Part shown: piece after piece, positions 1,878-36,000 of the stretch | Numbering within the stretch: the stretch's first letter is position 1 | Layout: every line of letters begins with the position of its first letter | Origin: an uncultured virus (IMG/VR IMGVR_UViG_3300042879_004886) | Lineage: Duplodnaviria > Heunggongvirae > Uroviricota > Caudoviricetes | Direction: 5' to 3' (one strand) | Virus record (IMG/VR): IMGVR_UViG_3300042879_004886 | Length of the DNA stretch: 64,000 nucleotides | The notes under the pieces: model-generated | Databases searched by the model: none | The model's input: only the letters and a program-made list of their open reading frames with translations | What the model was told of the DNA's origin: nothing | Position numbers and translations under genes: made by a program

Positions 1878-1882
1878 TTTTA

Positions 1883-5107: not shown

Positions 5108-5172
5108 GGGATTAATTGTTGCTAAAAGTCCAAATGCTAGTATAATTCTTCTTCTCATTAAAAGGAAACACA

Positions 5173-5864: not shown

Positions 5865-5867
5865 ATA
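5860..5867 (+). promoter_or_regulatory. T4-type late promoter TATAAATA
   Basis: Exact T4 late consensus upstream of a virion-like gene cluster; gp33 is encoded in the window. Confidence 0.7.
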
Positions 5868-5885
5868 TAATTGAGGAAAAATAGC

Positions 5886-6578: not shown

Positions 6579-6591
6579 TTTGGAGATATAA

Positions 6592-7413: not shown

Positions 7414-7431
7414 ATAAAGGGGAGATGTGAC

Positions 7432-20250: not shown

Positions 20251-20255
20251 GGAAA

Positions 20256-20269
20256 TATTTATATAAATA
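20256..20269. promoter_or_regulatory. Palindromic bidirectional late promoter TATTTATATAAATA
   Basis: Perfect 14-bp palindrome holding TATAAATA on both strands, 5 nt from each of two divergent ATGs. Confidence 0.75.
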
Positions 20270-20274
20270 AATTT

Positions 20275-20760: not shown

Positions 20761-20768
20761 ATAATATT

Positions 20769-21377: not shown

Positions 21378-21385
21378 ATAATTTT

Positions 21386-22126
21386 ATGAATTACCTAACA
21401 AACTACTACAAAAATTTATCGGAACAACTTCAAGAGAAAGTCAATTTTCTTGAAAGACAATTAGACGAAGCCTATGTTCTAAGCCCCTATCAAAAACTTG
21501 CAGGCAGTAAGACTAGTTACGATGCCGGTGTCCGACAAACACGCATGGATCAAGGACGAAAGAGAGCCAATATTTTGGGACAGATGATGGCTGCTCATAC
21601 GTATGACGCGGTCAATGATCATGAAAGAGCGGCAATAGCAAACATTATTGCAGATACTCATTCTTCAGTTCCACAAAGATCTAATTGGGCTCATGCAGGT
21701 TTTCATGCATTCGCTCCATCAGAAGGAAGAGCTGGAACACAAGCATCTGGTCAAGATTTACGAGTTGCCTTGGGAGCAATTAAGCGTTTGGGCAAAGATG
21801 CAAAATTTGCACAACATGTTACAGACACAGTTGCTGCAGAACTTCCAGGTACCATGGTAGATCGTGGATATATGGAAGACATGATGGCAGACAAAGATTA
21901 TCCCCAATTTGGTGCCAGAGATGCAAATCGCCTCGGAAATGTATCAAGAAGTCTTGCCGCAAATCTTCCAGCATCCACTAGTCCTTCAGCAGCAACAACA
22001 GAATTTGGCGCAAGAATGAATGCCATATACCCGGGAGACGAACGAGATTACGGCCCAAACGAATACAGCCACTATGTTCCAATGGATGTAGTTACACGTA
22101 TGTCTAAGCGTATGAAAGGAAAGTAA
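21386..22126 (+). CDS. MNYLTNYYKN-leader family protein
   Basis: Starts MNYLTNYYKNLSEQLQEKVNFLERQLDE. Confidence 0.8.
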   Translation: MNYLTNYYKNLSEQLQEKVNFLERQLDEAYVLSPYQKLAGSKTSYDAGVRQTRMDQGRKRANILGQMMAAHTYDAVNDHERAAIANIIADTHSSVPQRSNWAHAGFHAFAPSEGRAGTQASGQDLRVALGAIKRLGKDAKFAQHVTDTVAAELPGTMVDRGYMEDMMADKDYPQFGARDANRLGNVSRSLAANLPASTSPSAATTEFGARMNAIYPGDERDYGPNEYSHYVPMDVVTRMSKRMKGK

Positions 22127-22148
22127 AAATAATCTAAAAAACGGAAAT

Positions 22149-22182
22149 ATAACGGAGTCCAGAAAAGGCTCCGTTATTTTTT
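22149..22182 (+). terminator. Intrinsic terminator
   Basis: ATAACGGAG-N11-CTCCGTTAT followed by a T run. Confidence 0.7.
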
Positions 22183-22230
22183 CGCCGGAAACCTTTTTTA
22201 ACAAAATTTTTATATCCGCTAAATAATATT

Positions 22231-22758
22231 ATGAACTATTTAACAAACTACTACAAAAATTTATCGGAACAACTTCAAGAGAAAGTAAATCATCTCACCA
22301 AATTGCTTGAAGCATCTGCTGTCACGTCCAGGGAGATGCAAAGAAGAAGGGAACTGGAGCAAGCTGCAATGAACCCATCCAATGCACTGACGCCAATTCC
22401 CCAAAACATGAAACAAAGGGAAGCTGAAGAGGATTCAATGATAAAAACTTCCCGGGCAAACCGAGAAGAAGAAAGAGCAAGCTTTAAACGCAACACGAAT
22501 GCGCTTGCGGGTCTTGCGGTTCCACTAGCGATAACAGCAGCACCGAGTCCAGCAGCTGCCCTCGTAGCAGGAGTAGGATTTGGCGCAGCACAACTTGGGC
22601 AACACATCGGAAAAGAGATGGGATTGGATACAGCAGAAGACGATCTTGAACTTGAAAAAATAAGAAAAACTGCAGGAGCACTTCCATCGGATTATGAAAA
22701 AGCAGCAAGAGAAGCCGCTGCAAAAAGAAAAGAACGCGGAATCAAAACATACGACTAA
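22231..22758 (+). CDS. MNYLTNYYKN-leader family protein with an Ala/Gly hydrophobic hairpin
   Basis: Starts MNYLTNYYKNLSEQLQEKVNHLTKLLE; hydrophobic segment ALAGLAVPLAI...ALVAGVGFGAA. Confidence 0.8.
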   Translation: MNYLTNYYKNLSEQLQEKVNHLTKLLEASAVTSREMQRRRELEQAAMNPSNALTPIPQNMKQREAEEDSMIKTSRANREEERASFKRNTNALAGLAVPLAITAAPSPAAALVAGVGFGAAQLGQHIGKEMGLDTAEDDLELEKIRKTAGALPSDYEKAAREAAAKRKERGIKTYD

Positions 22759-22817: not shown

Positions 22818-22890
22818 ATGGCATATGGTGTAATTTGAGAAGAGGGGTCATGGGGTGGGGGTCTTTTAGTGGCTTGGATATTCTTCAAGG

Positions 22891-22925
22891 TTTTTTGAGA
22901 ATATTTGAGAAAATTTGAGAGACCC
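22891..22925 (+). repeat. Left arm of the imperfect inverted repeat flanking the early island (TTTGAGA x3, 10-bp period)
   Basis: TTTTTTGAGAATATTTGAGAAAATTTGAGAGACCC. Confidence 0.6.
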
Positions 22926-23090
22926 GGGGAGCTTAGCCGGTCCGATAAGGGTGGTGGAGATGGGACCCAAATCACTACTCGGACACGTGTTTCCCGAGAA
23001 CTTTCAAATTTATTTGAAAGTATAATTTCTTCAATAAACAACGATGGCCGGCGCTTCGCGCCGGCCATCGGAGGGCTGGGAGGACTGGGG

Positions 23091-23348
23091 TTACCAGTCC
23101 GGGTATTCCTCCTCGGGAACGTCCCATCCGTAGGGCCGCTCATCGTCGGCCTCGTACCCGGTGGGGTGGTCCCCATCGATGCCGGGGTCTTCCGGGGCCC
23201 ATTCGTCATCGGCCTCGTACCCGGCATCCATTTCCTCCACGCAAGTTTCGCAGAGGTCGTGGCTGTTGGGCGCGTCATCGCTGCAGCCGCAGCGGGGGCA
23301 CACGGGCTCGGGGCGGGGGGTTTCTTCGTTGTTGCAGGTGGTGCTCAT
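23091..23348 (-). CDS. Small acidic Cys-containing early protein
   Basis: TTGACA-N17-TATCAT-N6-ATG; CPRCGC...CETC followed by a very acidic tail. Confidence 0.75.
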   Translation of the reverse strand: MSTTCNNEETPRPEPVCPRCGCSDDAPNSHDLCETCVEEMDAGYEADDEWAPEDPGIDGDHPTGYEADDERPYGWDVPEEEYPDW

Positions 23349-23462
23349 GCCCCTATGATAAGGGCAGGTGGGAAGTTTGTCAACCATTCCCCATTATATT
23401 TCTTCGAATGACCATGCCGGCCCCTACGGGGCCGGCATGGGGCTGGGTGGTAGGCGGTGGGC

Positions 23463-23720
23463 TTACATCTCGCCCCATCCCGCACTCGCTAGCCAGTCGT
23501 TATCGGCATCCCAGTCCTCCCGGCTCATGTTCCCGCAGGCATCCGCGAACGCCTGCTGATCCGCCTCATCGCAGCGCCTCTCCTGCTCCATGCGCTTCTC
23601 GCGCTCGCGCACCCGCTCCTCCTCGCACATCGGGCACAGGCTGTCCGTGTAGGCGTACTCGGGGCGGTGGCAGTCGCAGGGGAAGTGTTCGTGCTCGTGG
23701 TTGTCGGTAGGGGTGCTCAT
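23463..23720 (-). CDS. Small acidic Cys/His-containing early protein
   Basis: TTGACA-N17-TATCAT-N6-ATG; CDCH...CPMC followed by an acidic tail. Confidence 0.75.
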   Translation of the reverse strand: MSTPTDNHEHEHFPCDCHRPEYAYTDSLCPMCEEERVREREKRMEQERRCDEADQQAFADACGNMSREDWDADNDWLASAGWGEM

Positions 23721-23791
23721 GCCCCCATGATACGGCCTACCTGCGGTTGTGTCAACCCATTCAGAAAGAAATATTTCTTTCTCTAGGTCGC

Positions 23792-23820
23792 TTGACATAC
23801 CACCGGCCATCGATTACAAT
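23792..23820 (+). promoter_or_regulatory. sigma70-like early promoter producing a leaderless mRNA (representative of about 20 in the window)
   Basis: TTGACA(23792)-N17-TACAAT-N6-ATG(23827). Same geometry (N16/17 spacer) at 24190, 24910, 26031, 26613, 27245, 27901, 30181, 30647, 32440, 36142, 36530, 39346, 45257 and 47351. Confidence 0.85.
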
Positions 23821-23826
23821 GGGTGC

Positions 23827-24174
23827 ATGAGCACCATCGACACGCGCCCCATCATCCTTCCCCTCGTCTTCAACGCCTCGCACCCGCGCTACGCCGACAA
23901 CCGGGCCATGCTGTACACCGCGCTCAACGCGGGCTGGGTCTGCCTCCAGTACCGGAAGACCGATGGCGTGATCGCCACGCGCATGGCCACGCGCAACCCC
24001 TCCATTGTCAAGGCCTTTGGCACGGACGATGACATCGAGAACCTCGCCACGGACAACGCCTACCCCGCGTCCATCCTGTACTTCGACCACTCGGCGGGCG
24101 GGCTGCGTTCCTTCCGCGTGGATAGCATCCACGAAGCGTTCATCCCCTCCGCGCCCCCGGAGATCAACCACTAA
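23827..24174 (+). CDS. SH3/WYL_2 (DUF2693)-like protein
   Basis: WVCLQYRKTDG..TRMATRN...YFDHSAGGLRSFRVDSI. Confidence 0.75.
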   Translation: MSTIDTRPIILPLVFNASHPRYADNRAMLYTALNAGWVCLQYRKTDGVIATRMATRNPSIVKAFGTDDDIENLATDNAYPASILYFDHSAGGLRSFRVDSIHEAFIPSAPPEINH

Positions 24175-24224
24175 ATCTTTCCGGGTCGCTTGACAACTCG
24201 CACCACCTACGGTACAATAGAACC

Positions 24225-24470
24225 ATGAAGCGCACCACCATCAAGCAAGTCAACGAAGCCCTCGCCTGCCTCAACATCCACCTCGGCGTGAAGTCTGGCG
24301 AGAAGGGTTCCTTCTGCCTCCAGGGAGCCTACGGCGGGTGGCAACTCCAGCGCCACTCCGAAGCCGGGATCGTGGGCATCGGCGGGTTCAAGTCGAAGCG
24401 TGAGGTGTACGAGATGATCCACAACATCGCCTACGGCGTCCTCATCGCGCCCCGGAGGGACATGATCTAA
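24225..24470 (+). CDS. Hypothetical early protein
   Basis: Leaderless promoter; LQGAYGGWQL..GFKSKREVY motif common in phage early genes. Confidence 0.75.
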   Translation: MKRTTIKQVNEALACLNIHLGVKSGEKGSFCLQGAYGGWQLQRHSEAGIVGIGGFKSKREVYEMIHNIAYGVLIAPRRDMI

Positions 24471-24545
24471 CGAGGTGGTGCTCGTAACAGCCGAAAAGGA
24501 TTCGCTCCCTGCCCCGATTCGTTCGGGGCTAGGCTGTTTATGGGG

Positions 24546-24615
24546 CTACTATCAGGCCGGCGCGCAGCGCCGGCCTGAGTCCGTTCACCGGCTCGCTTCG
24601 CTCGCCGGATAGTAG
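24546..24615. repeat. CTACTATC...GATAGTAG palindromic element, copy 1
   Basis: CTACTATCAGGCCGGCGC-GCA-GCGCCGGCCTGA...CCGGATAGTAGTCC. Confidence 0.85.
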
Positions 24616-24621
24616 TCCGCG

Positions 24622-24828
24622 CTAGCGGACGCCGTCTCTCCGTTCAAGGTACGCGATCTTGCTCCGAATGTACGCCAGTTCGCGCTCCATTTCTTCTTCA
24701 ATGATGCTCGGTCCTTCCGGAAACCACGCCCACGCCTTCTTCGGGAAACAATCCGCGTCTCCCACCGGGCATCCCCGATCCGGGTCGTAGTCGCAGTCGC
24801 GTCCGCAAATGTGTTCGGGCTGGCGCAT
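24622..24828 (-). CDS. Small Cys-containing early protein
   Basis: TTGACA-N17-TATCAT-N6-ATG on the minus strand. Confidence 0.7.
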   Translation of the reverse strand: MRQPEHICGRDCDYDPDRGCPVGDADCFPKKAWAWFPEGPSIIEEEMERELAYIRSKIAYLERRDGVR

Positions 24829-24944
24829 GCCCCCATGATACCACGCTCCGCGCCATTTGTCAATCCCAAACGGCAGAACGATTTATTACATTTATTCTTC
24901 GCGCATCGGTTGACAGATTCCCGCGCCCATGATATCATAGGGGC

Positions 24945-25514
24945 ATGTCGCGCACCACCACCACCGCCCGCTACGAAACCGTTCGCACCCGCGCCACCGA
25001 GTCGTTCATCGCGCTCCTGTCCCGCGCCACCGTGGCCGATTACCACGCGGCCCGCGCATGGTACACCGAGGCCAACGCGTTCGCTGAGTCGCTGACCATC
25101 CTGCGCCCGGAGTGGAGCATGGAAGTCGCGGCCAGCGTTGTCTCCGCGTTCTCGCCCCGCGTGACTTGGGCGCACAATAAGGCCAAGGCGCTCCAGTACG
25201 CGCAGGGCATCACGCCGAAGGGACTGCGCTCCCATGTGGCCGCTGCGGATCGGTGCTGCACGGAGGGCTTCAACGGCCTGAAGGGGCCGAAGACGAACGC
25301 GTTTGCCCGCGCCATCGCGGGGGATTCGGGCGCGGTCGTGGTCGATGTGTGGATGTGTCGCGCTGCCGACCTTGGCAAGGACGCGCCCACGGCCACCGAG
25401 TACCGGGCCATCGCGGACGCTATCCGCAGCATCGCGGCCACGCCGACCGTGTGCATGGCCCCGGCCACGCTGCAGGCTCTGCTTTGGATCATCGTCCGGG
25501 GAAAGGCCGACTAA
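24945..25514 (+). CDS. Conserved phage early protein (DUF7178-like, possibly glycosylase-related)
   Basis: ARAWY..., SAFSPRVTW..N, GPKTNAF, AVVVDVWM, LQALLW. Confidence 0.7.
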   Translation: MSRTTTTARYETVRTRATESFIALLSRATVADYHAARAWYTEANAFAESLTILRPEWSMEVAASVVSAFSPRVTWAHNKAKALQYAQGITPKGLRSHVAAADRCCTEGFNGLKGPKTNAFARAIAGDSGAVVVDVWMCRAADLGKDAPTATEYRAIADAIRSIAATPTVCMAPATLQALLWIIVRGKAD

Positions 25515-25762
25515 TGACTACACTCGCTCCCATTCGCAAGCGTACCACGCGGGTCGAGTTCTCCGCCCGTGAACTGGCCCTAATCGACGCGGCAATGTTC
25601 GACGCGTTGGTTAGACTCCTCAAGGATTCAAAGGCGTTCGACATTACCGACACGCAGGACGATGATGCGCTGATGGAGTGTCGCATGGATGCGAACGCGA
25701 TCAAGGGAATCCAGAGCAAACTGGATTTCGCCAGAAAGCAAATCGAACTGGAGGCCAAGTAA
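25514..25762 (+). CDS. Hypothetical protein
   Basis: TAATG coupling; MTTLAPIRK... Confidence 0.65.
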   Translation: MTTLAPIRKRTTRVEFSARELALIDAAMFDALVRLLKDSKAFDITDTQDDDALMECRMDANAIKGIQSKLDFARKQIELEAK

Positions 25763-25902
25763 TGAACAACCGACCCGGACGATTCGTGCACGATGCCTTC
25801 CGCCAAGGGATAAGGCTACGCCCCAAGACCTGGGGAAAGAAGAGCCGCGATCCTCGGGCTTTGAGGAGGGACGGAAAGCGGGAACTGGCCCGGGAGGGCT
25901 AG
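25762..25902 (+). CDS. Small basic protein
   Basis: TAATG coupling; MNNRPGRF... Confidence 0.55.
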   Translation: MNNRPGRFVHDAFRQGIRLRPKTWGKKSRDPRALRRDGKRELAREG

Positions 25903-25905
25903 GGA

Positions 25906-25971
25906 CTACTATCCGGGCCGGCCAAGGGCCGGCCCGGAGCTCCCCCGTTATCGGACGCCCCCTGATAGTAG
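25906..25971. repeat. CTACTATC...GATAGTAG element, copy 2
   Basis: CTACTATCCGGGCCGGCC-AAG-GGCCGGCCCGGA...GTTATCGGAC...CTGATAGTAG. Confidence 0.85.
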
Positions 25972-26065
25972 CCCAGGACGCGCCGGCGCAGGACGCGTTA
26001 TCGGCCCCCGAAATAATTTCTCCAAATCGCTAGACAGAATGCCCGCCATCGGTTACAATGGGTGC

Positions 26066-26449
26066 ATGAGCACCGCCTCCAACATCCCCGCCGCCTTCAT
26101 CCCCGCCTCCCTGACGCAGCCGATCACGGTCGTGCAGATCACCCGCGAACTGCGCTCCATGTACCCGATCATCGGCTGCGAGATCGTGGAGCGCGTGTCC
26201 CTCAACAAGAACTACCGCGCGGCCCTGTGGGTCGATGAGATGGGCCTCCTCCGGGACGCGCCCCTCAACCTGCGCGCCTCCTGCATCGCGGGCCGTCACA
26301 TCTACGGTGACGCGATCATGGCCGGGGAGTGCGCGGACACCTTCGACATCGTTCCCCTCTCCATCGCCTGCCCGAAGGTGTTCTTCGATGCGGTGGAGCA
26401 GGAGGCCCGCACCATCCTCAAGAACCTCAGCGAGCAGGAGGCGACCTGA
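26066..26449 (+). CDS. DUF3846-like phage protein
   Basis: IIGCEIVERV...LWVDEMGLL...LNLRAS...IYGDAIM; leaderless promoter. Confidence 0.75.
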   Translation: MSTASNIPAAFIPASLTQPITVVQITRELRSMYPIIGCEIVERVSLNKNYRAALWVDEMGLLRDAPLNLRASCIAGRHIYGDAIMAGECADTFDIVPLSIACPKVFFDAVEQEARTILKNLSEQEAT

Positions 26450-26647
26450 CCCCCGGATGGGGGAGGGGTTGAGAGAAATCTCCCCCTCCCCTTTAAAACC
26501 TACTGAAGGGGCATTCTAGACTTCCCCTTCCAAAGTCTGCTCCGAAGGGTAGGCAGACCACGAGAGGTTCTAGGTGATCCTCTCAATGATTAAAAAAAAT
26601 CGTTCGACCCGCTTGACAAACGCACCTCGACCCGATACAATAGGGAC

Positions 26648-26884
26648 ATGACGAACAGCACCACCCAACTCCCGGAAATCGAAATCCCGCCCGCCAACGA
26701 CTTCGGCATGGCCTTCGCCTACGGACTGGTCAACGGCTTCACCTTGGGCCTCGAAAACTCGCTCCGCAACGGTCGCTCCGACAAGTGTGTGCGGGAGGAG
26801 GCCGAGCGGTTCATCCGCTATGTCCGCGCGGTCGAGGTGGCCGTCACCCGGTGGCAGGATGCCCGCCGAAACAACCCCGCCTAA
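26648..26884 (+). CDS. Hypothetical early protein
   Basis: Leaderless promoter at 26613. Confidence 0.7.
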   Translation: MTNSTTQLPEIEIPPANDFGMAFAYGLVNGFTLGLENSLRNGRSDKCVREEAERFIRYVRAVEVAVTRWQDARRNNPA

Positions 26885-26955
26885 AGGGTGGTGCTAGGGG
26901 GGTGGAGGCTTGTTGCCCCGCCCCCCACCCGACCCCTCCAAGAAAGAAAAAGAAA

Positions 26956-27243
26956 ATGAACCCGACTCAAGAAATCGCCCGTGTCGTTCGCACCGCCCTC
27001 TCCAACGGAGAGATCATCAGCGTCACCTTCCGAAAGGTGGACGGAACCACAACCCACGACCGCAAGATCACGCGGAACCTGATCGTGATTCCGAAGGACA
27101 AGCATCCCAAGTTTGTGCGCGGTGAGAACCCGCACTACATCACCGCGTTCGACACCAAGAAAGGCGACTGGATTCGCTTCCACGAGGATTCCATTGTTGG
27201 TGTGATGGACTTCAGCCGTGAAGCAGAAATAGTTACTGCGTGA
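26956..27243 (+). CDS. SH3/WYL_2 (DUF2693)-like protein
   Basis: ISVTFRKVDGT..DRKITRN...AFDTKKGDWIRF. Confidence 0.75.
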   Translation: MNPTQEIARVVRTALSNGEIISVTFRKVDGTTTHDRKITRNLIVIPKDKHPKFVRGENPHYITAFDTKKGDWIRFHEDSIVGVMDFSREAEIVTA

Positions 27244-27279
27244 CTTGACATTCGCACCACCAACAGGTAAAATAGCACC

Positions 27280-27654
27280 ATGAACAAGCCCACCCGAATC
27301 CCGGCAATCGACGCCCTCGCCCTCAACCTCGCCCTCTGCCTCGCTATGGTCAAGGACACGAAGAAGGACGCGGAGGAGACGAACGCCGCCCTCGCCTTCT
27401 GCGAACTCGCCGTCAGCCTGCCCCCGGCATGGTTCACCGCAACGGAGCGTGAGATCGTGGTCGCTCTCATCAAGGAACTCTACGGCAACCCCCACGACTT
27501 CATCAACGCTCTCTCCGATGGCAGCGTGTCCTACTACAACCACATGATCGCCAAGATGCGCGCCAAGGGCGAGGAGATGGCGGTGGACTTGGACGAGGCG
27601 GTGGGAAAACTCGTGGACATGCACCTCGCGCAGTACGGTGCGCCCGTGATCTGA
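27280..27654 (+). CDS. Hypothetical early protein
   Basis: Leaderless promoter at 27245. Confidence 0.7.
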   Translation: MNKPTRIPAIDALALNLALCLAMVKDTKKDAEETNAALAFCELAVSLPPAWFTATEREIVVALIKELYGNPHDFINALSDGSVSYYNHMIAKMRAKGEEMAVDLDEAVGKLVDMHLAQYGAPVI

Positions 27655-27784
27655 ACCAATAACACCAGGCGCCTCGCGCAGCGCAAACCCGAAGAGATTT
27701 GCAAGTTTCTTTGGGCACAGGGAGTACGGTGCTTCCTTCAAGACCTCTGGCCCGCCCTCTTTAGAGCGGGCCATGTCCTTTGGG

Positions 27785-27852
27785 CTACTATCAGCGGCCC
27801 CTAAGGCCGCTGATTTTATTGGACGGCTCGGATGCCCCTCGCCTGATAGTAG
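27785..27852. repeat. CTACTATC...GATAGTAG element, copy 3
   Basis: CTACTATCAGCGGCC-CCTAA-GGCCGCTGA...CTGATAGTAG. Confidence 0.85.
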
Positions 27853-27935
27853 CCGGCCCGGACCCCTTGGACCGATAATAAAAAATATTCCCCGGTTTGC
27901 TTGACGGGACACCTTTTATGCCTTATCATGGGGGC

Positions 27936-28163
27936 ATGACCAACCCCGACCACATTCCGTATGACGAGTCCGATCTCTACGACACCAACGATGCCATCGT
28001 TGAACTGATGAACGAGGGCTACAGCCGTGATGAGGCCACCCGCATGGTGGGCGACTACGACCCGGAGGAGTACGAGGGCAGCGAGGTCGATCTTGACCGG
28101 GATGTTCCCGACATGGATGACTTCGATGCCGATGAGTTCGTTGACGAGGAGGACTTCGATTGA
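27936..28163 (+). CDS. Highly acidic small early protein
   Basis: Leaderless promoter at 27901; D/E-rich. Confidence 0.75.
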   Translation: MTNPDHIPYDESDLYDTNDAIVELMNEGYSRDEATRMVGDYDPEEYEGSEVDLDRDVPDMDDFDADEFVDEEDFD

Positions 28164-28540
28164 TCTCCTTCAGGGTCACGCTCCACCACAAGCCCTCCTT
28201 CTCCCACGCTTGGGTGAAGCGCAGGTTCGGCAAGATGATGAACGACATCATGTTCGCCCACATGACGGCCCTGATCGGCAAGGCTGACTTTTCCCCGCTG
28301 CACAAGACCACCATGTTCGCGGAGATGCCGGATTACGAGACCTACATCCTTCGCGTCGAGATTCATTCGGACGACATGAAGGACTTCTACGCGATCAAGA
28401 ACTACCTGTCGAAAAGCAAGAAAAACTACACCGTCCTGCTTGACAAGGTTGAACCTTCCCTTATAATGGAGGCACCATGCGAAAGCCACCCCGACACTTC
28501 CCCGACAAGCCCACCACCTGTGATGTCAGCGACCTGCTGA
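28160..28540 (+). CDS. Hypothetical protein
   Basis: TTGA overlap with the upstream stop; GC-rich codon usage. Confidence 0.55.
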   Translation: MISFRVTLHHKPSFSHAWVKRRFGKMMNDIMFAHMTALIGKADFSPLHKTTMFAEMPDYETYILRVEIHSDDMKDFYAIKNYLSKSKKNYTVLLDKVEPSLIMEAPCESHPDTSPTSPPPVMSATC

Positions 28541-28719
28541 ACGAGATGTTCGCCTTCGTGCAGGAGAACCCGCTGTGGCACGAGGATGTGGACAGCGTTG
28601 CAAAGATGGCGATTGCCTACGGCATCCTCACCAACATGAGCGACCCGTCCATGTGCAGCGAGGATGAGTGTGAGTTCGTGGTGGACATTTTCTCCAAGAT
28701 TCAGGAGGTCAGCAAGTGA
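28477..28719 (+). CDS. Hypothetical protein
   Basis: Promoter at 28440 and GGAGG SD. Confidence 0.7.
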   Translation: MRKPPRHFPDKPTTCDVSDLLNEMFAFVQENPLWHEDVDSVAKMAIAYGILTNMSDPSMCSEDECEFVVDIFSKIQEVSK

Positions 28720-29063
28720 GCGCACCCAACAAGTTCAACAACTTCTTCAACGACCCGTCCAAGGTGGCACCGAACTTCAAGCCGCCCCCGCCCATGATCG
28801 CAGCCATGCTCCTCGCGCTGACCTGCGAGAACAAGACTTGGTACAAGGACGACAAGTTGCGCCTCATAGTTTCCGCCGCGACTGCCGACATGGGCATGAC
28901 GCTCATGCGGATGAAGGAGAACGACGAGGAGTGTCCCCTCGACCAGATGACGATGGGCTTCATCATGCTCCTCGTTGACCTCCTTACCATGACCCGTGAC
29001 AAGTACGGGAGCGCGGAAGAGAAGCGCATGTGGAGCGAGGACGAGGACATGGATCAGGTTTGA
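28716..29063 (+). CDS. Hypothetical protein
   Basis: GTGA overlap; GGAGG SD. Confidence 0.7.
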   Translation: MSAPNKFNNFFNDPSKVAPNFKPPPPMIAAMLLALTCENKTWYKDDKLRLIVSAATADMGMTLMRMKENDEECPLDQMTMGFIMLLVDLLTMTRDKYGSAEEKRMWSEDEDMDQV

Positions 29064-29220
29064 CAAACCCGCGCCCATCGGGTACAATGGGCAAGTCTCA
29101 ACAGCCTCCCGTAAATCGGCTGAAACCGTAGGTGGGCAACCGTAGCAGCCAAAGACCCGGCTAGCCGTATGACAAAAGGTAAGCGGGTGGGAACCCGGCT
29201 TCAACAGGGTTCCCAGTTTC

Positions 29221-29293
29221 GCCTCTGTGGCGCAGTTGGTAGCGCAGTAGACTTTTAATCTATTGGTCGTGGGTTCGAACCCCACCGGAGGCA
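29221..29293 (+). tRNA. tRNA-Lys(UUU)
   Basis: Cloverleaf; GTAGA-CT-TTT-AA-TCTAT; GGTTCGAAC. Confidence 0.95.
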
Positions 29294-29295
29294 TT

Positions 29296-29595
29296 ATGAC
29301 GAACGGCATCCCAACCCCCGAAGAGTCCAAGGTTCTAGCACTCCAAGCCTACGACCGCGTAGTGATCGTGGCAGACCTGATCATGGAGCATTGGCTTGAA
29401 GGCAATGCGAATCCTCCCAAGGAACTGATCGATGCCTACTACGATGCCGTGGAAGAGGCGACCTTCTTCATCAACGGCAATCGTCTTCATGAATCGGTTG
29501 TTCGCCCGAACTCCGACTTCTACGAGGAGATCCACGGAAAGTTTGGGCTAGAAAACTTCAAGAAAAAACTTGACAACACTCCCGACCTGTTCTAG
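29296..29595 (+). CDS. Hypothetical protein
   Basis: ATG directly after the tRNA; the tRNA 3' end supplies GGAGG. Confidence 0.65.
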   Translation: MTNGIPTPEESKVLALQAYDRVVIVADLIMEHWLEGNANPPKELIDAYYDAVEEATFFINGNRLHESVVRPNSDFYEEIHGKFGLENFKKKLDNTPDLF

Positions 29596-29606
29596 AATGG
29601 GAGCAT

Positions 29607-29679
29607 GGCGCGGTAGACCAACGGCAGAGTCAGTTGACTCAAAATCAACAAAGTGTGGGTTCGAATCCCACTCGCGCTA
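29607..29679 (+). tRNA. tRNA-Leu(CAA) with a short variable loop
   Basis: GTTGA-CT-CAA-AA-TCAAC; GGTTCGAATCC; no long variable arm. Confidence 0.9.
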
Positions 29680-29689
29680 CTAAAAGAGA

Positions 29690-29867
29690 GGCGGTGCTTC
29701 TTCAAGCCCGTCCAAGTTGAGATGAGGCATGGGCTGTATAGAGAAGTCGCTAGGATTCCCCGCCGTGCGCAAACCTTCCACGGCTAGGTGTGGTAAAGCC
29801 CTTATGTTGGCTACACCCGACCCGAAAGTACGATCCTAGAGATGCAGGTATGGGAGTCCTGCTGCCG
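29690..29867 (+). ncRNA. Unclassified multi-helix structured RNA in the tRNA operon
   Basis: Nested helices CTAGGAT/ATCCTAG, GCCGTG/CACGGC, GGTGTGG/CTACACC, AGCCC/GGGCT and GCAGG/CCTGC; no credible ORF. Confidence 0.55.
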
Positions 29868-29876
29868 AATCGACCT

Positions 29877-29950
29877 GTTCCCGTAGCCCAGTTGGATAGA
29901 GCAGCCGCCTTCTAAGCGGCAGGTCGCTGGTTCGAATCCAGCCGGGAACG
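29877..29950 (+). tRNA. tRNA-Arg(UCU)
   Basis: GCCGC-CT-TCT-AA-GCGGC; canonical D and T arms. Confidence 0.95.
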
Positions 29951-30089
29951 CTTGACAAACCTGAAAGGAGTGATACAATGTATCACAACATGACGAATAA
30001 TATATTTTGAGTTTGGCGGTGTTCGACAAACCGCATAGAGGCAACCTACGGTTGCACAGACACGGAGCATCTGTAAAAAGGCTTCCCAC

Positions 30090-30165
30090 GGAAGGGTGGC
30101 TGAATCGTAGTTAGAGCGCATGCCTTATAAGCGTGAATATGTGGGTGCAACTCCCGCCCCTTCCA
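30090..30165 (+). tRNA. tRNA-Ile(UAU)
   Basis: GGAAGGG/CCCTTCC acceptor; CATGC-CT-TAT-AA-GCGTG; variant T loop TGCAACT. Confidence 0.85.
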
Positions 30166-30214
30166 CTTCCGACTTTTTGCTTGACAACCCCAAACCAAGA
30201 GGTATAATAGAACC

Positions 30215-30457
30215 ATGACCATCGAACCCACGACTCTCATCTACCTGTCCCTCACCGGCCTCGCACTCTTTTGCGCCATCGGCTACACCCGTGCGCTGCT
30301 TCGTGAGCGCAGCGCAGCCGTGAACCACCGCATCAACGAGTTGGAGACTGATTACTGGCGCGAGCATGAGAAGATTTACGCCCGCATCAACAGCCTTGAG
30401 CGTTGCTGCAAGCCGCAGGAGAAGTGCGACAAGAACTTCTACAACACGGGAGCCTAA
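30215..30457 (+). CDS. Small membrane-anchored protein
   Basis: N-terminal hydrophobic helix and coiled coil; leaderless promoter. Confidence 0.7.
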   Translation: MTIEPTTLIYLSLTGLALFCAIGYTRALLRERSAAVNHRINELETDYWREHEKIYARINSLERCCKPQEKCDKNFYNTGA

Positions 30458-30481
30458 TCCGCTTCGGCTCCCTTTCATAGT

Positions 30482-30514
30482 CATGCCGGCCCGCAAGGGC
30501 CGGCATGTTGTTTT
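30482..30514 (+). terminator. Intrinsic terminator
   Basis: CATGCCGGCCC-GCAA-GGGCCGGCATG-TTGTTTT. Confidence 0.75.
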
Positions 30515-30517
30515 GAG

Positions 30518-30589
30518 CTACTATCAGAAACCGGCCTTATGCCGGTTTCTGAGGATTGGACGGTATTATTATTTCTTTCCGGATAGTAG
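30518..30589. repeat. CTACTATC...GATAGTAG element, copy 4
   Basis: CTACTATCAGAAACCGGC-CTTAT-GCCGGTTTCTGA...CCGGATAGTAGTCC, then GTTATCGGAC at about 30614. Confidence 0.85.
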
Positions 30590-30681
30590 TCCAGGACCAG
30601 GCGGAGCCGGCAGGTTATCGGACTCAAAAAAAACTTTGAAGATTGCTTGACGACAAGAAGATTGTGCCTTACAATGTTTGT

Positions 30682-31992
30682 ATGAACAGCATCGACAACC
30701 GCAAGGCAAAGTTCCTCAAGGCTCTCACCGACCTGTACGGCTCCCCCTCGTCCATCGGTGAGGCACGGTACACGCGTGAGCAGTGCATCAACGCATTCCA
30801 CCGCACCTACCATATGTCCCCCAACGACAACTACAGCACCCTTCCGGCTTGGCTCGTCCAAGACAAGTCCCGGCGCGTTGGCCGTGGAATGTACAGCATC
30901 CCGGAGATGGTCGTCGTCACCGATGCAATCGGTGAGGAAAATGAGAATCTTTCTTCAGAGGAGTTGACCGACTCCGAAACTTCGGTTACAATGGAACCCA
31001 TGAGCAGCAGCAACTACAACCTCGTCGCCCCGTCCTCCGATGTTTCGCTCGTCCCCGTCAAGAACGACACTTTCGTTCCTTGGGGCCACCACGATGACAT
31101 CAGCACCATCCTCAAGTCCAAGCAGTTCGCGCCCGTCTACATCACGGGCATGAGCGGCAACGGCAAGACCACGATGGTCGAGCAGATTTGCGCGGCCTCC
31201 GGTCGTGAGTGCATCCGCGTCAACATCACCGCCGAGACTGACGAGGATGACCTCATCGGTGGCTTCCGCCTCATCAACGGCGAAACCAAGTTTGTGTTCG
31301 GCGGGGTCGTTCAGGCCATGCAGCGTGGCGCGATCCTCCTGTTGGACGAGATCGACCTTGGGACGGAGCGCATGATGTGCCTTCAGCCCGTCCTTGAGGG
31401 CAAGGGCATCTACATCAAGAAGATCGGCGCGTTCATCAAGCCCGCCGTTGGCTTCAATGTGGTCGCCACCGCCAACACCAAGGGCAAGGGCGAGTCTGAC
31501 CGCTTCGTTGGCACTCGCTGCATGAACGAGGCGTTCCTTGACCGCTTCTCCTATTGGTTTGAGCAGGACTACGCTGACCGCACCGTGGAGGCGCGTATCA
31601 TCATCCGCAAGATGAAGGCATACGGCAAGGAGGACAAGGAGTTCGCGCAGTACCTCGTCAAGTGGGCGGAAACGATCCGCTTGGGCTTCAAGGAGGGCGG
31701 CTTGGACGATATCATCACCACCCGCCGCTTGGAGGAGGTCTGCAAGGCGTTCGCCATCTTCGGTGACAAGCAGAAGGCGATCAAGTTGACGCTGACGCGC
31801 TTCGATCCCGCCACGCAGGATGCGTTCTTCAACCTCTACACCAAGATCGACCCGACCATCCTCCCTCCCCCGGAGGGGATGAAGGATCACCCCGTCAAGA
31901 AGGATTGGGCGGGAACCCCGGTGCAGGATGCCATCGACATCACCGATCCCCACCTGAAGGGCGGGGACACGCAGTACGCAGTCAACGCCTAA
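30682..31992 (+). CDS. cobS: CobS-like (MoxR/CbbQ family) AAA+ ATPase with an N-terminal winged-helix-like domain
   Basis: Walker A GMSGNGKT, ETDEDDLIGGFRL, Walker B LLLDEID, ATANTKGKG, NEAFLDRF, ITTRRL. Confidence 0.9.
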   Translation: MNSIDNRKAKFLKALTDLYGSPSSIGEARYTREQCINAFHRTYHMSPNDNYSTLPAWLVQDKSRRVGRGMYSIPEMVVVTDAIGEENENLSSEELTDSETSVTMEPMSSSNYNLVAPSSDVSLVPVKNDTFVPWGHHDDISTILKSKQFAPVYITGMSGNGKTTMVEQICAASGRECIRVNITAETDEDDLIGGFRLINGETKFVFGGVVQAMQRGAILLLDEIDLGTERMMCLQPVLEGKGIYIKKIGAFIKPAVGFNVVATANTKGKGESDRFVGTRCMNEAFLDRFSYWFEQDYADRTVEARIIIRKMKAYGKEDKEFAQYLVKWAETIRLGFKEGGLDDIITTRRLEEVCKAFAIFGDKQKAIKLTLTRFDPATQDAFFNLYTKIDPTILPPPEGMKDHPVKKDWAGTPVQDAIDITDPHLKGGDTQYAVNA

Positions 31993-32011
31993 CCAAGAAA
32001 GAGAAAAGAAA

Positions 32012-32254
32012 ATGCCATACCTCAACAAGCGCAATCGTTTCGTCCAAGCCGCAAAGCAGTTCGCAGACACCGCACAGGCGGCTAGTGGAGGAGGACAGGC
32101 TGACTACAGCCAGTTCACCAAGACGGAACTCCTGACCATTGCCCAGTCCATCAACATGAAGGGTGTCCCGACTTGGGTGCTGAAGGACTACATGAGCGCG
32201 GTGAGCAAGGGGGTCTACGACCTGACTTCGCTCATCACCCCGGTCACCGTCTGA
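32012..32254 (+). CDS. Stand-alone paralog of the CobS N-terminal domain
   Basis: VPTWVLKDYMSAVSKGVYDL aligns with LPAWLVQDKSRRVGRGMYSI. Confidence 0.65.
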   Translation: MPYLNKRNRFVQAAKQFADTAQAASGGGQADYSQFTKTELLTIAQSINMKGVPTWVLKDYMSAVSKGVYDLTSLITPVTV

Positions 32255-32304
32255 TGCTGTTCATGCCCCGGCCCCCACAGGGGGCCGGGGCAGCGGGAGG
32301 GGGA

Positions 32305-32378
32305 CTACTATCCGAGGCCCCTTAAGGGCCGAGGACTCGCAGAACTTTATTATTTCTTAGGACGGTGCCGGATAGTAG
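32305..32378. repeat. CTACTATC...GATAGTAG element, copy 5
   Basis: GGGACTACTATCCG...GGCCC-CTTAA-GGGCC...CGGATAGTAGTCCC, then GTTATCGGAC at about 32407. Confidence 0.85.
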
Positions 32379-32474
32379 TCCCAGACCCGTACCTGCAGCT
32401 GGCCGAGTTATCGGACGCAAAAAAATCTTTCTGTTTCGCTTGACGCACCCACGACCATCCCTTATACTGTAGGC

Positions 32475-34649
32475 ATGAACACCTCTCTCTCCATCTTCGC
32501 CCGCGCACTCGCCACCGAGAACCTGTCATTTGCCTTCGACCCGGAGGCGGAAACCGCGTCCTTCGATGTCAAGCAGCGTCACCTCACCCTCCCGGTGTGG
32601 AAGGTTTCGGAAACCGTGCAAACCATGCTGATCGCGCACGAGATCAGCCACGCGCTGTGGACTCCTGCGGAGGAGAGTGATGCCATCCTCAAGGCTGCGG
32701 AGGCGGAGGGCTACAACCCGGTCATCCTTCAGCGGATCGCCAATGTGGTCGAGGATGTCCGCATCGAGAAGATGATGAAGGAGAAGTTCCCCGGCACTCG
32801 CCGCGACTTCTTCCTTGGCTACAAGGAGATCGTGGACACCGACCTGTTCGGCTTCTCCAAGATGGACTTCGACCGGGCTACCCTCGTCAACCGCATCAAC
32901 CTCCACTTCAAGTGGGGCGTTCAGGGCTTCCTGCCGATCAACCTCACCGATGAGGAGCAGAAGATCGCGGACGAGGTTGATGCCGTGACCACCTTTGCGG
33001 AGGTCTACGATATCGCCAAGCGTCTGTACGATCACCCCTCTATGGAGAGCGTGGTGGAGCAGATGGAGGAGCAGCAGAAAGCGGGAGGACGGCGGGACGG
33101 CAGCAACCTCATGGACGAGGCCATCAAGGAGTTCACCCCCGGTCAAGGGGACAAGAAGGACGGCGAGCAGTTCACCGCCTCCTGCGTCACCATCTCCCCG
33201 GTGAAGGACTTGTCCACGGTCATCATCCCCTCGTCCAATCTGCTCAAGCAGTTTGAGGAGCGCAACAACGGTTTCGTCAACATGGACGGCTACCGCGAGT
33301 TCGTTCGCCACTCCGATGCGTTCGTTCGCCAGTTGGCCGCGCAGTTTGACCGCCGCAAGGCTGCGGACGAGATTCGGCGTGAGCGTCCCAAGCAGACCGG
33401 GATGCTGAACCTCGACCGCCTCCACCAGTACCGCACCCACGACGATATCTTCATCAGCAAGATCGTCAAGCAGGACGGCAAGAACCACGGCATGGTGTTC
33501 ATGCTCGACTTCTCCGGCAGCATGAGCGTCCGTTTGAGCGACTGCATCCTCCAGTTGTTCCAGTTGGTGTGGTTCTGCGAGAAGGCCAAGATTCCGTTTG
33601 AGGTGTTCGCCTTCACCGACTGCGGCCCTGCCTACATTGACGGCAAGAAGTACGATGCCGCCTTCAACGAGTTCAGGCGCAAGGGCGGTCAGGGCGACTT
33701 CATCTACACGCCCCTGCTCACGCAGATCAACAACCCCAAGCCCACCTCCGTTGAGTACGGCATGGTGCGCCTGTTCAACCTCCTCTCGTCCTCCGATTCG
33801 GCTGCTGATCGTGAGCGCATGATGGCCTACCTGTACGGTGCGTTCGTGGACGAGGCCAAGGAGAAGGCCGCGAACTACAATGATCGGGTTCAGGCTCCCT
33901 GCTGCCTCTCGCTGCACGGCACTCCCACGGTGGAGGCTATCGCTGCGGTCAGCCAGTTCATGCTCAAGTGGGTGGCCGACAAGAAGATTCAGATTCCGAC
34001 CCTCATGGTTGTCACCGATGGTCAGCCCAACGGCATCTACACCCGGAACGATTTGGTTTCAAAGACGGCGTACTACCACCATGCGGAGAACGGCACGATG
34101 ACCGTGATGAACGAGGTCTGCGGGACGGCTCACCGCATGAACCTGTACGACTACCGTGGCACGAACCTCGCCAATGTCCTGATCGGCTCCATGCTCGACT
34201 CGCTCCGCAAGACGATCAACGCTAGGCTTGTCGGGATGTTCGTGGGCAGCAACACGCTGCACGAAACGGAGTACCTCGCGTTCTGTATGTCCACCAAGGA
34301 GCGGGAGGCGTACTTCAACCTCCCCTACCACCTCCGCAACACGGGCATCTCGCCCCGCTTCACCGCCATGCGCGAGGCGTACAAGGACGGGGCCATCGTC
34401 TGCCACCCGGAGATGGCTCCCGGCTACGACTCGTTCTTCCTGATCCGCACCCCCAAGATCGTCAAGGACGCGGATGCCATTGCGGAGAGCGGAACCTTCA
34501 CCAAGATCAAGAACACCTTTGTCAAGACGATGGGCAAGCGGGCGGGTAGCCGCGTGTTCCTCACCCGGTATGTGGATATCGTGGCGGGGCAGGCCATCAA
34601 GCCCGGACTCCCCCCGGAGTATCAGCAGGCCATTTCCCCTGCAAAGTAA
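32475..34649 (+). CDS. CobT-like VWA/metallopeptidase protein (partner of the AAA+ ATPase)
   Basis: TASFDVKQRHLTLP, AHEISHALWT, NVVEDVRIE; MIDAS LDFSGSM, GTP, TDG. Confidence 0.88.
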   Translation: MNTSLSIFARALATENLSFAFDPEAETASFDVKQRHLTLPVWKVSETVQTMLIAHEISHALWTPAEESDAILKAAEAEGYNPVILQRIANVVEDVRIEKMMKEKFPGTRRDFFLGYKEIVDTDLFGFSKMDFDRATLVNRINLHFKWGVQGFLPINLTDEEQKIADEVDAVTTFAEVYDIAKRLYDHPSMESVVEQMEEQQKAGGRRDGSNLMDEAIKEFTPGQGDKKDGEQFTASCVTISPVKDLSTVIIPSSNLLKQFEERNNGFVNMDGYREFVRHSDAFVRQLAAQFDRRKAADEIRRERPKQTGMLNLDRLHQYRTHDDIFISKIVKQDGKNHGMVFMLDFSGSMSVRLSDCILQLFQLVWFCEKAKIPFEVFAFTDCGPAYIDGKKYDAAFNEFRRKGGQGDFIYTPLLTQINNPKPTSVEYGMVRLFNLLSSSDSAADRERMMAYLYGAFVDEAKEKAANYNDRVQAPCCLSLHGTPTVEAIAAVSQFMLKWVADKKIQIPTLMVVTDGQPNGIYTRNDLVSKTAYYHHAENGTMTVMNEVCGTAHRMNLYDYRGTNLANVLIGSMLDSLRKTINARLVGMFVGSNTLHETEYLAFCMSTKEREAYFNLPYHLRNTGISPRFTAMREAYKDGAIVCHPEMAPGYDSFFLIRTPKIVKDADAIAESGTFTKIKNTFVKTMGKRAGSRVFLTRYVDIVAGQAIKPGLPPEYQQAISPAK

Positions 34650-34706
34650 ATAAAAAGTTCTGCATGGCCCTGGATGGGAAGGAGAGAGCCCATCCAGGGC
34701 GGGCAG

Positions 34707-34771
34707 CTACTATCAGCGGACCTCGGAGGTCCGCTGATTTTTTGCATATATTTGCGCCCACCTGATAGTAG
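34707..34771. repeat. CTACTATC...GATAGTAG element, copy 6
   Basis: CTACTATCAGCGGACCT-CGG-AGGTCCGCTGA...CTGATAGTAG. Confidence 0.85.
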
Positions 34772-35595
34772 TGGACGGCATGGACGGGATGGGGACGGGA
34801 TGTTTCCGAGCTCTCCATCCAGGTATGCAATCTTCTGGACGCCTCAAATAATAATTAATTTACTCTGGAGAAGACAACGTTTCTCCAGGAAGCCGGCTGG
34901 GCTGAGTTATCGGACTTGTGCTCCATTGCTTGACATACCCCCATATATGGTGTATAGTTATCGGACTGTTCATGCGACCGGTAACCTCCCAGACCCCTGT
35001 GTCCGATAATCGTAGTGTCGGGGCTGGGAGTTATCGGTTGTTTATGCTCTGGGCCATACTTATCGGTCTTCTGGTGCACGGACTGCTTACCGGACTCATA
35101 TTGTATTATGGGACGGGACAGAACCTGGACGTTATCGATCCCGGACAGAATTCAAAAATTTCTGAAAATTTTCAAAACCCTGACTACTATCGGGGTGACT
35201 ACTATCCGGGGGTTCTGGGACAGCTTAGACTGGCTCGGACAGGGTCCCCCTTGGTCCCTGGACGGGATATAGAATAAATTATATTCCTTGGACGGGATTT
35301 GTCATCCAGAAGAGCTCTGGAGGTCCTGGATTGCCTGGACGGCATGCAGGGTTGTCAAAAATTTCTTAAATTTGTCAAAATTTTTAATAATTTGTCAAGT
35401 ATTTCCTTGACTGCCTAGGATGGCTTATACGAAGGAGGCGTTATGGACGCCTCGGAGGGCCTTAAAAGGCTAGGACGGGCTATAAAGGCGTTTAAAGTGG
35501 CTTGGAGAGGGTTTGAGGGGGGTGGGTTCTAACTCAAACTTCTCAAAATATTCTTAAAAATTCTTTACCCTCTTCACTCTCTTTCCAACCCCTCT
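34772..35595. repeat. Non-coding repeat cluster (GTTATCGGAC-like, GACTACTATC, GGACG, and TTGTCAA at a 20-bp period); candidate origin or other DNA signal
   Basis: Repeats at about 34906, 34957, 35001(rc), 35030, 35060, 35087, 35131, 35184 and 35199; TTGTCAA at 35352, 35372 and 35392. Confidence 0.7.
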
Positions 35596-36000
35596 TTACC
35601 CCTTACCTACGGGCTTTATTTTTTCCATATCAGCCTTATCAATGACATAGGCTGGTATGGTTTTCTTTCCTTCCATTGAGTGTGCTTTCTTTATTCTGTT
35701 TAGCCCGTCTGTAATCGAAATAGTACCGTCTTCCTGCCTTATGCCCAATACTGGTACGCTGGTATCTGCCTTTTCCATTCTTTTCTTATGATCTTTGTTG
35801 TCCATGTCATACTGTTTGTCCCACCATTCCAAAGCGTCTGTTTCTTTGATGGGCAAATCTTTTACGAAAAATTCTTTCTTTGATTTGGCAAAATCGTAGA
35901 TATCCTTAACACGGTACTTCTTGCCAGTCTCATCATTTGTGGCAATCTGGTCTTTCCAATCTTCAACTTTTTCCTTTAAGAAAATTTTGAAACTTTTCAT
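35596..36000 (-). CDS. ParB/Srx-like N-terminal-domain protein with an MKSFKIFLKE leader
   Basis: PVLGIRQEDGTISITDGLNRIKKA...IPAYVI. Confidence 0.65.
   Translation of the reverse strand: MKSFKIFLKEKVEDWKDQIATNDETGKKYRVKDIYDFAKSKKEFFVKDLPIKETDALEWWDKQYDMDNKDHKKRMEKADTSVPVLGIRQEDGTISITDGLNRIKKAHSMEGKKTIPAYVIDKADMEKIKPVGKG

Follow-up and report, generated by a model that had tools for sequence, protein, structure and literature searches.

The 64,000-nucleotide (nt) stretch of the uncultured Caudoviricetes record IMGVR_UViG_3300042879_004886 of IMG/VR, here called the window, carries six copies (E1 to E6) of a conserved DNA-level element at the joints of its early genes. The window phage is T4-like with a GC content of approximately 37%, and the elements lie in a GC-rich island from approximately 22.9 to 35.5 kb which is probably a long terminal repeat. 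Each element comprises an invariant box, an adjoining dyad of free sequence, a spacer and an inverted box. The element is a well-defined module and a variant form of early-region joint, closest to the described promoter early stem-loops (PeSLs). Since the island is apparently carried at both chromosome ends, the elements are most likely landing sites for a protein, with a part in organising the DNA that enters the cell first, and not sites of gene swapping.

The preliminary description of this DNA, made from the sequence alone, had reported six elements with spans of 70, 66, 68, 72, 74 and 65 bp. All six were recovered with these spans (Table 1), and 0/100 dinucleotide shuffles gave a match. 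The elements were co-oriented, with the dyad adjoining the left box, and intergenic as claimed, none was found outside the island within the window, and the start-to-start distances of 1360-2733 nt agreed with the reported spacing of 1.4-2.7 kb. The consensus of the box was RCTACTATCMR. The order at a joint was RNA-type hairpin, box, dyad, spacer, inverted box, GGAC repeats, TTAYNGGAC motif, A/T tract and promoter, and the PeSL-like setting that had been suggested was supported by the intergenic position, the terminator hairpin, the AT-rich tract and the sigma70-type promoter. In 36 copies, the distance of the TTAYNGGAC motif to the -35 box was either 22-27 or 30-35 nt, and the motif was thereby phased to the promoter (R = 0.70 at 10.5 nt). 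The two folds described as exclusive, with only the inner hairpin formed or with the outer boxes paired, differed in silico by 0-2.8 kcal/mol with DNA parameters. Within the window, the inner stem of E5 was imperfect with two mismatches, and a 277-nt insert, which two close relatives do not have, parted E1 from its promoter. Two lone forward boxes start at 35184 and 35199 at the right end of the island, and their core ACTATC was invariant in 12/12 aligned sequences. The A-variant of the box (e.g. 25962-25971) reads as three consecutive stop codons on one strand, which is probably incidental. In addition, the 9-nt word CTGTTCATG was observed ahead of a hairpin at both 32258 and 34965, the right-end copy being nearly invariant in 12 sequences.

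Table 1. Coordinates of the elements and of associated features in the window.
Feature	Position	Strand	Remarks
E1, box-dyad-spacer-box	24546..24615	+	dyad 24552-24578
E2	25906..25971	+	dyad 25912-25938
E3	27785..27852	+	dyad 27790-27814
E4	30518..30589	+	dyad 30524-30552; upstream of AAA+ gene
E5	32305..32378	+	imperfect dyad; between 80-aa gene and vWA/peptidase gene
E6	34707..34771	+	dyad 34712-34738; 3' of last large island gene
Two lone forward boxes, conserved non-coding right-end region	35184..35208	+	missed in the preliminary description
Upstream RNA-type terminator hairpin (example)	30482..30507	+	hairpin class with G·T bias and GNRA/UUCG loops
Other upstream terminator hairpins	~24511-24529, 27748-27773, 32264-32292, 34667-34700	+	
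Second motif TTAYNGGAC (example)	30613..30623	+	phased to promoter; others at 25948, 32408, 34907, 34958
Downstream sigma70-type promoter (example)	30647..30675	+	ATG 6 nt past -10 box; also 24910, 26031, 27901, 32440
GC-rich pre-early island, probable ~12.7-kb long direct terminal repeat	22884..35565	.	from GC content, promoters and contig depth
Left end motif	22887..22919	+	phased TTTGAGAA-type repeats at GC step; candidate packaging-end signal
Right end motif	35533..35565	-	inverted copy of left, 76% complementary; candidate packaging-end signal
Ordered right-end region	34880..35565	+	promoter 34930-34958, hairpin, TTATCGG-type array, GGAC repeats, A-tracts
CobS/MoxR-like AAA+ ATPase	30682..31992	+	N-terminal winged-helix-like domain 30682-~30930
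80-aa protein	32012..32254	+	weakly similar to ATPase N-domain
724-aa peptidase-like/CobT-like partner gene	32475..34649	+	phrog_459, phrog_5298; between E5 and E6

Distribution and inner symmetry of the element

Motif scans covered IMG/VR contigs and metagenome loci, and copies were counted only after a hairpin filter. The element was found in 28 IMG/VR contigs and in 43/80 metagenome loci among the matches listed, with at least 151 distinct copies past the filter; two further contigs with box pairs were dropped as chance, the dyad being lacking. Loci were also picked by protein instead of by motif, against circularity, and showed exact boxes in 21/27 loci and a dyad of at least 10 bp enclosed by 43/48 box pairs. 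In all islands covered end to end (6/6; the window and five relatives, 11.6-13.1 kb), the six elements were located at the same syntenic joints, three of which (E4-E6) surround the invariant genes for an AAA+ ATPase, an 80-amino-acid (aa) protein and a vWA protein, and the gene content between elements differed among relatives. Paired boxes were confined to the island in the relatives G002-G005. A scan of GTDB bacterial and archaeal genomes produced 15 matches, which were read as chance because none had the box-abutting dyad anatomy. Overall, the number of distinct copies and their fixed joints bore out the earlier suggestion of a dedicated, conserved cis-acting element. No description of it was found in the literature searched, where the motif-directed search covered the best 15 of 188 results.

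PeSLs, in the passages on RB49/phi1, T4/PST and KVP40/nt-1 (PMC2839356, PMC4122927), resemble the element in combining an intergenic terminator, an AT-rich tract and a sigma70 early promoter, and the joints of both precede variable small open reading frames (ORFs). However, the element has in addition boxes of 8-10 nt that do not vary and a DNA dyad with strict Watson-Crick pairing, whereas PeSL stems in the same passages show G-T pairs and act as terminators. In addition, the element occupies six fixed sites against approximately 50 PeSLs per genome, its promoters have leaderless starts where those of PeSLs have Shine-Dalgarno sequences, and unlike PeSLs it is confined to the probable terminal repeat.

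The inner stems of 134 distinct hairpins comprised 1,553 pairs, with 1544 Watson-Crick, 0 G·T, 2 A·C and 7 other pairs. The same scoring applied to the upstream hairpins (91 distinct hairpins from 150 copies) produced 970 Watson-Crick, 23 G·T, 2 A·C and 11 other pairs. GNRA/UUCG tetraloops were present in 0/36 inner and 15/38 upstream hairpins, and the contrast between the two classes gave p = 4e-10 for pairs and p = 1e-5 for tetraloops. The modal inner stem was 12 bp, the centre had 0-1 nt in 48/134 dyads, and the first pair of the dyad was at box position 6 in 104/151 copies and at position 7 in 44/151. Since G·T pairs and RNA tetraloops are absent here, unlike in the upstream hairpins, the symmetry of the dyad is kept at the DNA level.

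RNA processing signals had been among the options of the preliminary description, and in an RNA-level role the element would terminate transcription a second time or be a site of RNase III-type processing between early units, comparable to the host-takeover module of SPO1, whose terminal redundancy has termination and RNase III sites according to passages of PMC3896407. The elements directly follow gene ends, E3 and E6 score as terminator-like, and one E5 lineage retains a strand-asymmetric tandem G·A mismatch. A T-rich tail (at least 5 T in the 8 nt after the dyad) was found in 64/151 copies, a terminator-like feature which counts against a role at the DNA level alone. However, the lack of G·T pairs and RNA tetraloops disfavours this option for the inner hairpin, as do the centres of 0-1 nt, and an RNA-type hairpin already precedes many copies. 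An Rfam scan, in which only tRNAs reached the gathering score, gave no family for the element, and the invariant boxes outside the stem would be left unexplained. We therefore hold an RNA-level role to be very unlikely.

Loop inversions were found between close relatives; a 99.9% identical pair compared over 11.5 kb had only 2 differences, of which one was such an inversion. Loop flips were rejected as a special signature of the element, being equally common in upstream hairpins (4/18 inner groups and 3/11 upstream-hairpin groups, p = 1.0; others 3/41). Two 13-bp GC-rich perfect dyads without boxes were also observed at the left of the island (23042-23070 and 23412-23440), and the loop of the former was flipped in one relative.

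Element length varied continuously between 44 and 84 nt and showed no helical phasing (R = 0.11). In G005, 2-3 tandem direct boxes were present with no dyad enclosed between them, collapsed hairpin forms mostly retained one exact box and a CAAC variant, and in one outgroup clade only the inverted CTATCRG core remained. The box thus acts alone, since the spacing is unphased and relatives retain single, tandem-direct or collapsed boxes. Helical phasing of the box with the promoter was looked for and rejected (R = 0.29; 40/98 copies with a detected promoter).

The early island and its ends

The GC content of the island was 58% against mostly 30-47% per kb elsewhere, and 16 consensus sigma70 promoters were found in the island against 1 in the other 51 kb. 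At 13/16 island promoters the ATG was 6 nt past the -10 box, which leaves no room for a leader or a Shine-Dalgarno sequence. Three island genes had a GC content at third codon positions (GC3) of 0.86-0.87, compared with 0.23-0.64 for seven genes outside. Promoter density, leaderless starts and GC3 together suggest that the island is a host-adapted, first-expressed block. A total of 11 tRNA genes was observed at 29221-62372, of which 8/11 read A-ending codons and match the AT-rich late genome; against the island GC3 of approximately 0.87, the early genes therefore seem adapted to the tRNAs of the host.

The island is probably a sequence-defined long terminal repeat of approximately 12.7 kb, T5/SPO1-like, in a T4-like phage, as indicated by an approximately two-fold GC-corrected contig depth in two studies together with conserved inverted end motifs. 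The preliminary description had not seen this probable repeat. The left end motif was found in 18/19 relatives whose fetched DNA should reach it and the right inverted motif in 14/18 relatives, using a fuzzy search (≤6 edits in 27 nt) with some chance matches elsewhere. At ≤8 substitutions the end motif was not found in the G006-G008 stretches, which may stop short of the left end. To the left of its tRNAs, contig 44971_002605 (L051/L098) carried unrelated genes, and the left end motif was not found in it; its E4-E5 region was joined leftward to these genes at the tRNA cluster, by rearrangement or chimeric assembly.

Contig depth was taken from four runs of four studies, with the best-matching run left out as the possible source and with X4 and X5 excluded from the depth fit as mixed strains. 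Near-exact island contigs had depths of 34-54 in run X2 and 14.4-18.5 in run X3, against 12.8 and 5.17, respectively, just right of the island. Contigs across the left border showed a depth of 29.4 in X2, where 29.2 was predicted with a two-fold step and 35.3 without, and 11.9 in X3, where 11.9 and 15.1 were predicted. Depth tracked GC inside the island (r = 0.91 in X2, 0.83 in X3) and the GC-corrected ratio of island to right flank was 2.14 (X2) and 2.69 (X3), although Logan contig depth is not a copy number. Also weighing against the terminal repeat, each run provided one outside contig and one border contig with a GC fit on six points, and strain mixtures could mimic the depth step. The terminase is an ordinary T4-type gp17, at 48-51% to T4-like cyanophage terminases, and a passage of PMC4122927 describes this group as circularly permuted. 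A pac-started short headful series or a strain mixture are the alternatives to a sequence-defined repeat. In run X2, a contig of depth 41.6 was observed to join 22817 and 22220, which probably represents another strain whose paralogue array differs at this border.

In the passages on T5 (first-step-transfer DNA; bioRxiv 10.1101/866236) and SPO1 (PMC3896407), the terminal repeats resemble the island in that 10-13 kb are given over to early genes under strong host promoters, with conserved repeats and palindromes in the non-coding DNA and a repeat-rich non-coding right end. The T5 repeat, in the preprint passages, has repeat regions 1-3 and an injection stop signal (iss) with DnaA boxes, whereas the element boxes are not canonical DnaA boxes. 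Unlike T5 and SPO1, the window phage has a full T4 core with a T4-type terminase, and the ends of its island are placed from contig depth only. No match to A1/A2, the proteins of the two-step DNA transfer of T5, was found among the 29 window proteins scanned. The Rak2-like jumbo phage CBB, in passages of PMC5259590, also has a long terminal repeat alongside T4-related genes, and its 22-kb repeat was detected by doubled read depth, the same kind of evidence as used here (reads for CBB, contigs for the island). The near-complete relative G002 has a length of 126 kb with ends that share 134 nt at E1, and encodes gp16/17/20/23/43, UvsX/Y, a UvsW-like helicase, gp46/47 and a RuvC-like resolvase.

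The right-end region of approximately 700 nt was conserved, non-coding and had its features in the same order in 12 sequences, and its hairpin (34930-35565 region) showed compensatory changes. No match to the region was found in 50,697 records of cultured phages. It is a candidate origin, injection-stop (iss-like) or packaging region. A 101-aa ORF (34972-35277) which overlaps it may be spurious.

Candidate reader proteins and host

The N-terminal domain of the AAA+ ATPase is a weak candidate for a protein that reads the box. The domain has invariant basic residues, and the top fold matches of its model were winged-helix (Z up to 5.2, rmsd, the root-mean-square deviation, of 3.4 and 65 residues aligned). 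It was present in 18 box-bearing loci and absent from all 6 loci without exact boxes. Three observations speak against this candidate: its fold scores are below the trust level, the box-bearing locus L403 has no such domain in the fetched DNA, and the loci without boxes represent two outgroup lineages only. Locus L401 was cut by the contig end at the domain. The domain had no Pfam family and no match in cultured phages, and a viral-fold search matched solely similar uncultured proteins (E ≥ 0.016). An internal promoter-like site at 30964-30997 in the linker of the ATPase, conserved in relatives, would yield a short form without the N-domain, and the outgroups encode only the short form.

The 80-aa protein matched the ATPase N-domain with a pairwise E of 2e-6 but a profile probability of 4%. 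It was rejected as the box reader, being retained in all 6 loci without exact boxes, and its fold search gave no Foldseek match at E ≤ 0.001 (best Z 5.8). The DUF7178 protein (24945-25514) was also rejected, as it is absent from the box-bearing G009 stretch, and had no PDB sequence match. It is conserved 3' of E1 in most relatives, has more than 1,000 homologues and carries a motif which we take to be reminiscent of HhH DNA glycosylases. The WYL_2 proteins that the preliminary description had placed near the elements were confirmed, and its adjacent 'wHTH' protein was weakly supported. Its 'ParB-like' ORF (35596-36000) had no ParB match in Pfam or NCBIfam and lies beyond the right end motif of the island. 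A factor that reads the box would more probably be encoded by the phage, given that the 5' half of the box changes from lineage to lineage; a DnaA-like factor of the host may serve instead. No DnaA gene was found in 5 phage records.

Of the genes outside the island, a tandem family of five at 19726-22758 shares an N-terminal MNYLTNYYKNL-type leader with unrelated C-termini, and its copy number varies among relatives. A phage protein at 38688-39137 with 161 homologues has a PEP-CTERM-like sorting tail, which suggests a Gram-negative host. Phycisphaerales are a guess at the host, and two metagenome-assembled genome labels give Bacteroidota.

Possible roles of the elements

Among the options of the preliminary description, protein-binding sites in the early or entry region fit best. 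We tentatively favour, with confidence somewhat short of even, a reading in which the elements are landing sites for a DNA-binding factor combined with a cruciform-prone dyad, insulating or controlling the pre-early units. The island would be the first-expressed block of a T4-like phage, probably duplicated as a terminal repeat, with boxes at six fixed joints, each preceded by an RNA terminator and followed by a strong leaderless sigma70 promoter. A site-specific factor would most likely read the boxes singly, in their double-stranded form. Beside the left box, the perfect dyad of approximately 12 bp, with its first pair at box position 6 or 7, would be extruded as a cruciform by negative supercoiling behind the adjacent promoter, and the branch point would split the left box. 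Together, the bound factor and the dyad would form an insulator or roadblock and a supercoil-sensitive switch, which would partition, and then tether or silence, the pre-early units. The same box marks the conserved right-end region. Gene swaps at the joints would follow incidentally from the sharing of promoter sequence, as with PeSLs. A bolder version, which we consider decidedly unlikely, is that a T4-core lineage swapped random headful ends for a sequence-defined 12-kb first-entering repeat, whose box-cruciform stations would be read by a repeat-encoded winged-helix-AAA+ (CobS/MoxR-like) motor metering entry or shut-off of the pre-early DNA by units, with the lone right-end box as a T5-like stop.

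Several findings tell against landing sites that control the early units. The elements are dispensable in some relatives (none in G007, none at E5 in G005), several G009 joints carry tandem promoters in their place, and the remnants in G005 can still fold tiny CTACT/AGTAG hairpins. Box position 9 co-varies between arms (79/95 matching, p = 5e-8), which points to possible arm pairing; this co-variation runs along lineages, and none was seen at position -1 (p = 0.82). In L414 (G009; 880-9306), many joints were observed to be two tandem promoters around a conserved short motif, with no box element.

Pairing of the arms would be used in single-strand priming or anchoring, by analogy with hairpin/DnaA-box priming sites, where paired boxes stacked on the hairpin would load a primosome approximately every 2 kb during strand-displacement copying of the repeat. 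The spacing of the elements, their confinement to the probable repeat, the near-isoenergetic outer-paired fold, the co-variation at position 9 and the loop flips at several island hairpins are consistent with this. However, position 9 is mismatched in 16/95 copies, direct-repeat and element-free lineages exist, and priming does not require close linkage to a promoter. Such a role is highly improbable.

Programmed cleavage, which is unlikely in our judgement, would make the box a nickase site or have the extruded cruciform cut at the box by the phage RuvC-like resolvase, and duplication of the terminal repeat, circularisation or recombination-dependent replication would begin from these cuts. 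The single-strand interruptions of tf/LUZ24-like, T5 and phiKMV-like phages, in passages of PMC3517423, are like the box short invariant sites in a probable terminal-repeat phage; the TACT/A register of the box resembles TACT/RTGMC, the consensus of Pseudomonas phage tf, which the box matches at 7/9 positions, and the tf cut point coincides with the dyad start in 104/151 copies. RuvC-like and HNH genes are present, and enzymes of the RuvC family, according to passages of PMC10956419, require a set sequence at the exchange point for cutting. The loop inversions between close relatives and one indel that ends 2 nt past E1 would also fit. However, the two positions at which the box departs from the tf consensus are both fixed in tf, and known tf-type sites are on one strand, whereas the island boxes are on both (8 forward, 6 reverse), dyad-paired and at intergenic joints only. 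In addition, loop flips were no rarer in the upstream terminator hairpins and some relatives are without elements. A Cce1-type cut preference, which we take to match the box, was not confirmed in the literature passages on resolvases.

Recombination cassettes, with early genes exchangeable at PeSL-type exchange points or at attC/REP-like single-strand sites, had been another option of the preliminary description. Integron attC sites and REP/REPIN (repetitive extragenic palindromic) sequences have inverted ends, a variable interior and single-strand folding. The former belong to an integron integrase, with one site per mobile gene cassette in variable number and order, and the latter have GTAG at the 5' foot of the hairpin and a TnpA-REP nuclease. 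The element resembles both in its inverted ends and in a variable interior able to fold as a single strand, with outer arms that can pair. Gene content between elements varies, and the setting of terminator, AT-rich tract, sigma70 promoter and variable ORFans is that of PeSLs in passages of PMC2839356. However, unlike attC, the six sites are fixed and syntenic, E4-E6 flank invariant genes, there is no one-site-per-gene pattern, and direct-repeat variants without an attC-like fold occur. Unlike REP/REPIN, CTAC is 5' of the element hairpin and GTAG at the far 3' end.

No integrase or HUH match was found among 104 ORFs of ≥110 aa in G002 (1-106.5 kb outside the island; E ≤ 1e-6) or among the 29 window proteins scanned from the island and its flanks, a host enzyme being a further possibility. 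None of the 15 contig joints listed (of 141) connects box to box, as would be expected of the mini-circles that form between PeSL cassettes, where contigs show presence and not absence. The breakpoint comparison covered 14 pairs, 24 indel events and 48 ends, with pairs that share lineages and ends that are approximate. Indel ends fell within 15 nt of a box in 4/48 (background 3.8%, p = 0.11), so the ends of gene gain and loss proposed to lie at the elements were not significantly enriched there, and near a promoter in 8/48, a modest enrichment over non-independent pairs (background 7.3%, p = 0.02). The attC-like reading is thus unsupported, given the fixed positions, the lack of a recombinase match among the proteins scanned and the lack of a significant enrichment of indel ends at boxes. 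Overall, exchangeable cassettes are quite improbable, and PeSL-like shuffling at promoters is plausible.

Were the element alone to prove real, it would be a clearly defined new form of joint of the PeSL type and of moderate interest. If the terminal repeat is true, a common freshwater T4-like lineage would package fixed ends with a T5/SPO1-style host-takeover repeat, in contrast with T4-type phages, which are described as circularly permuted. The function of the repeats and palindromes in the T5 iss is given as unsolved in passages of an in-silico preprint (bioRxiv 10.1101/866236). The six exactly defined cis sites, with natural variants that are extended, collapsed, direct-repeat or absent, make three questions testable, namely how long terminal repeats are copied, what role the repeats and palindromes within them have, and what the substrate of the CobS-like AAA+/vWA pair is.

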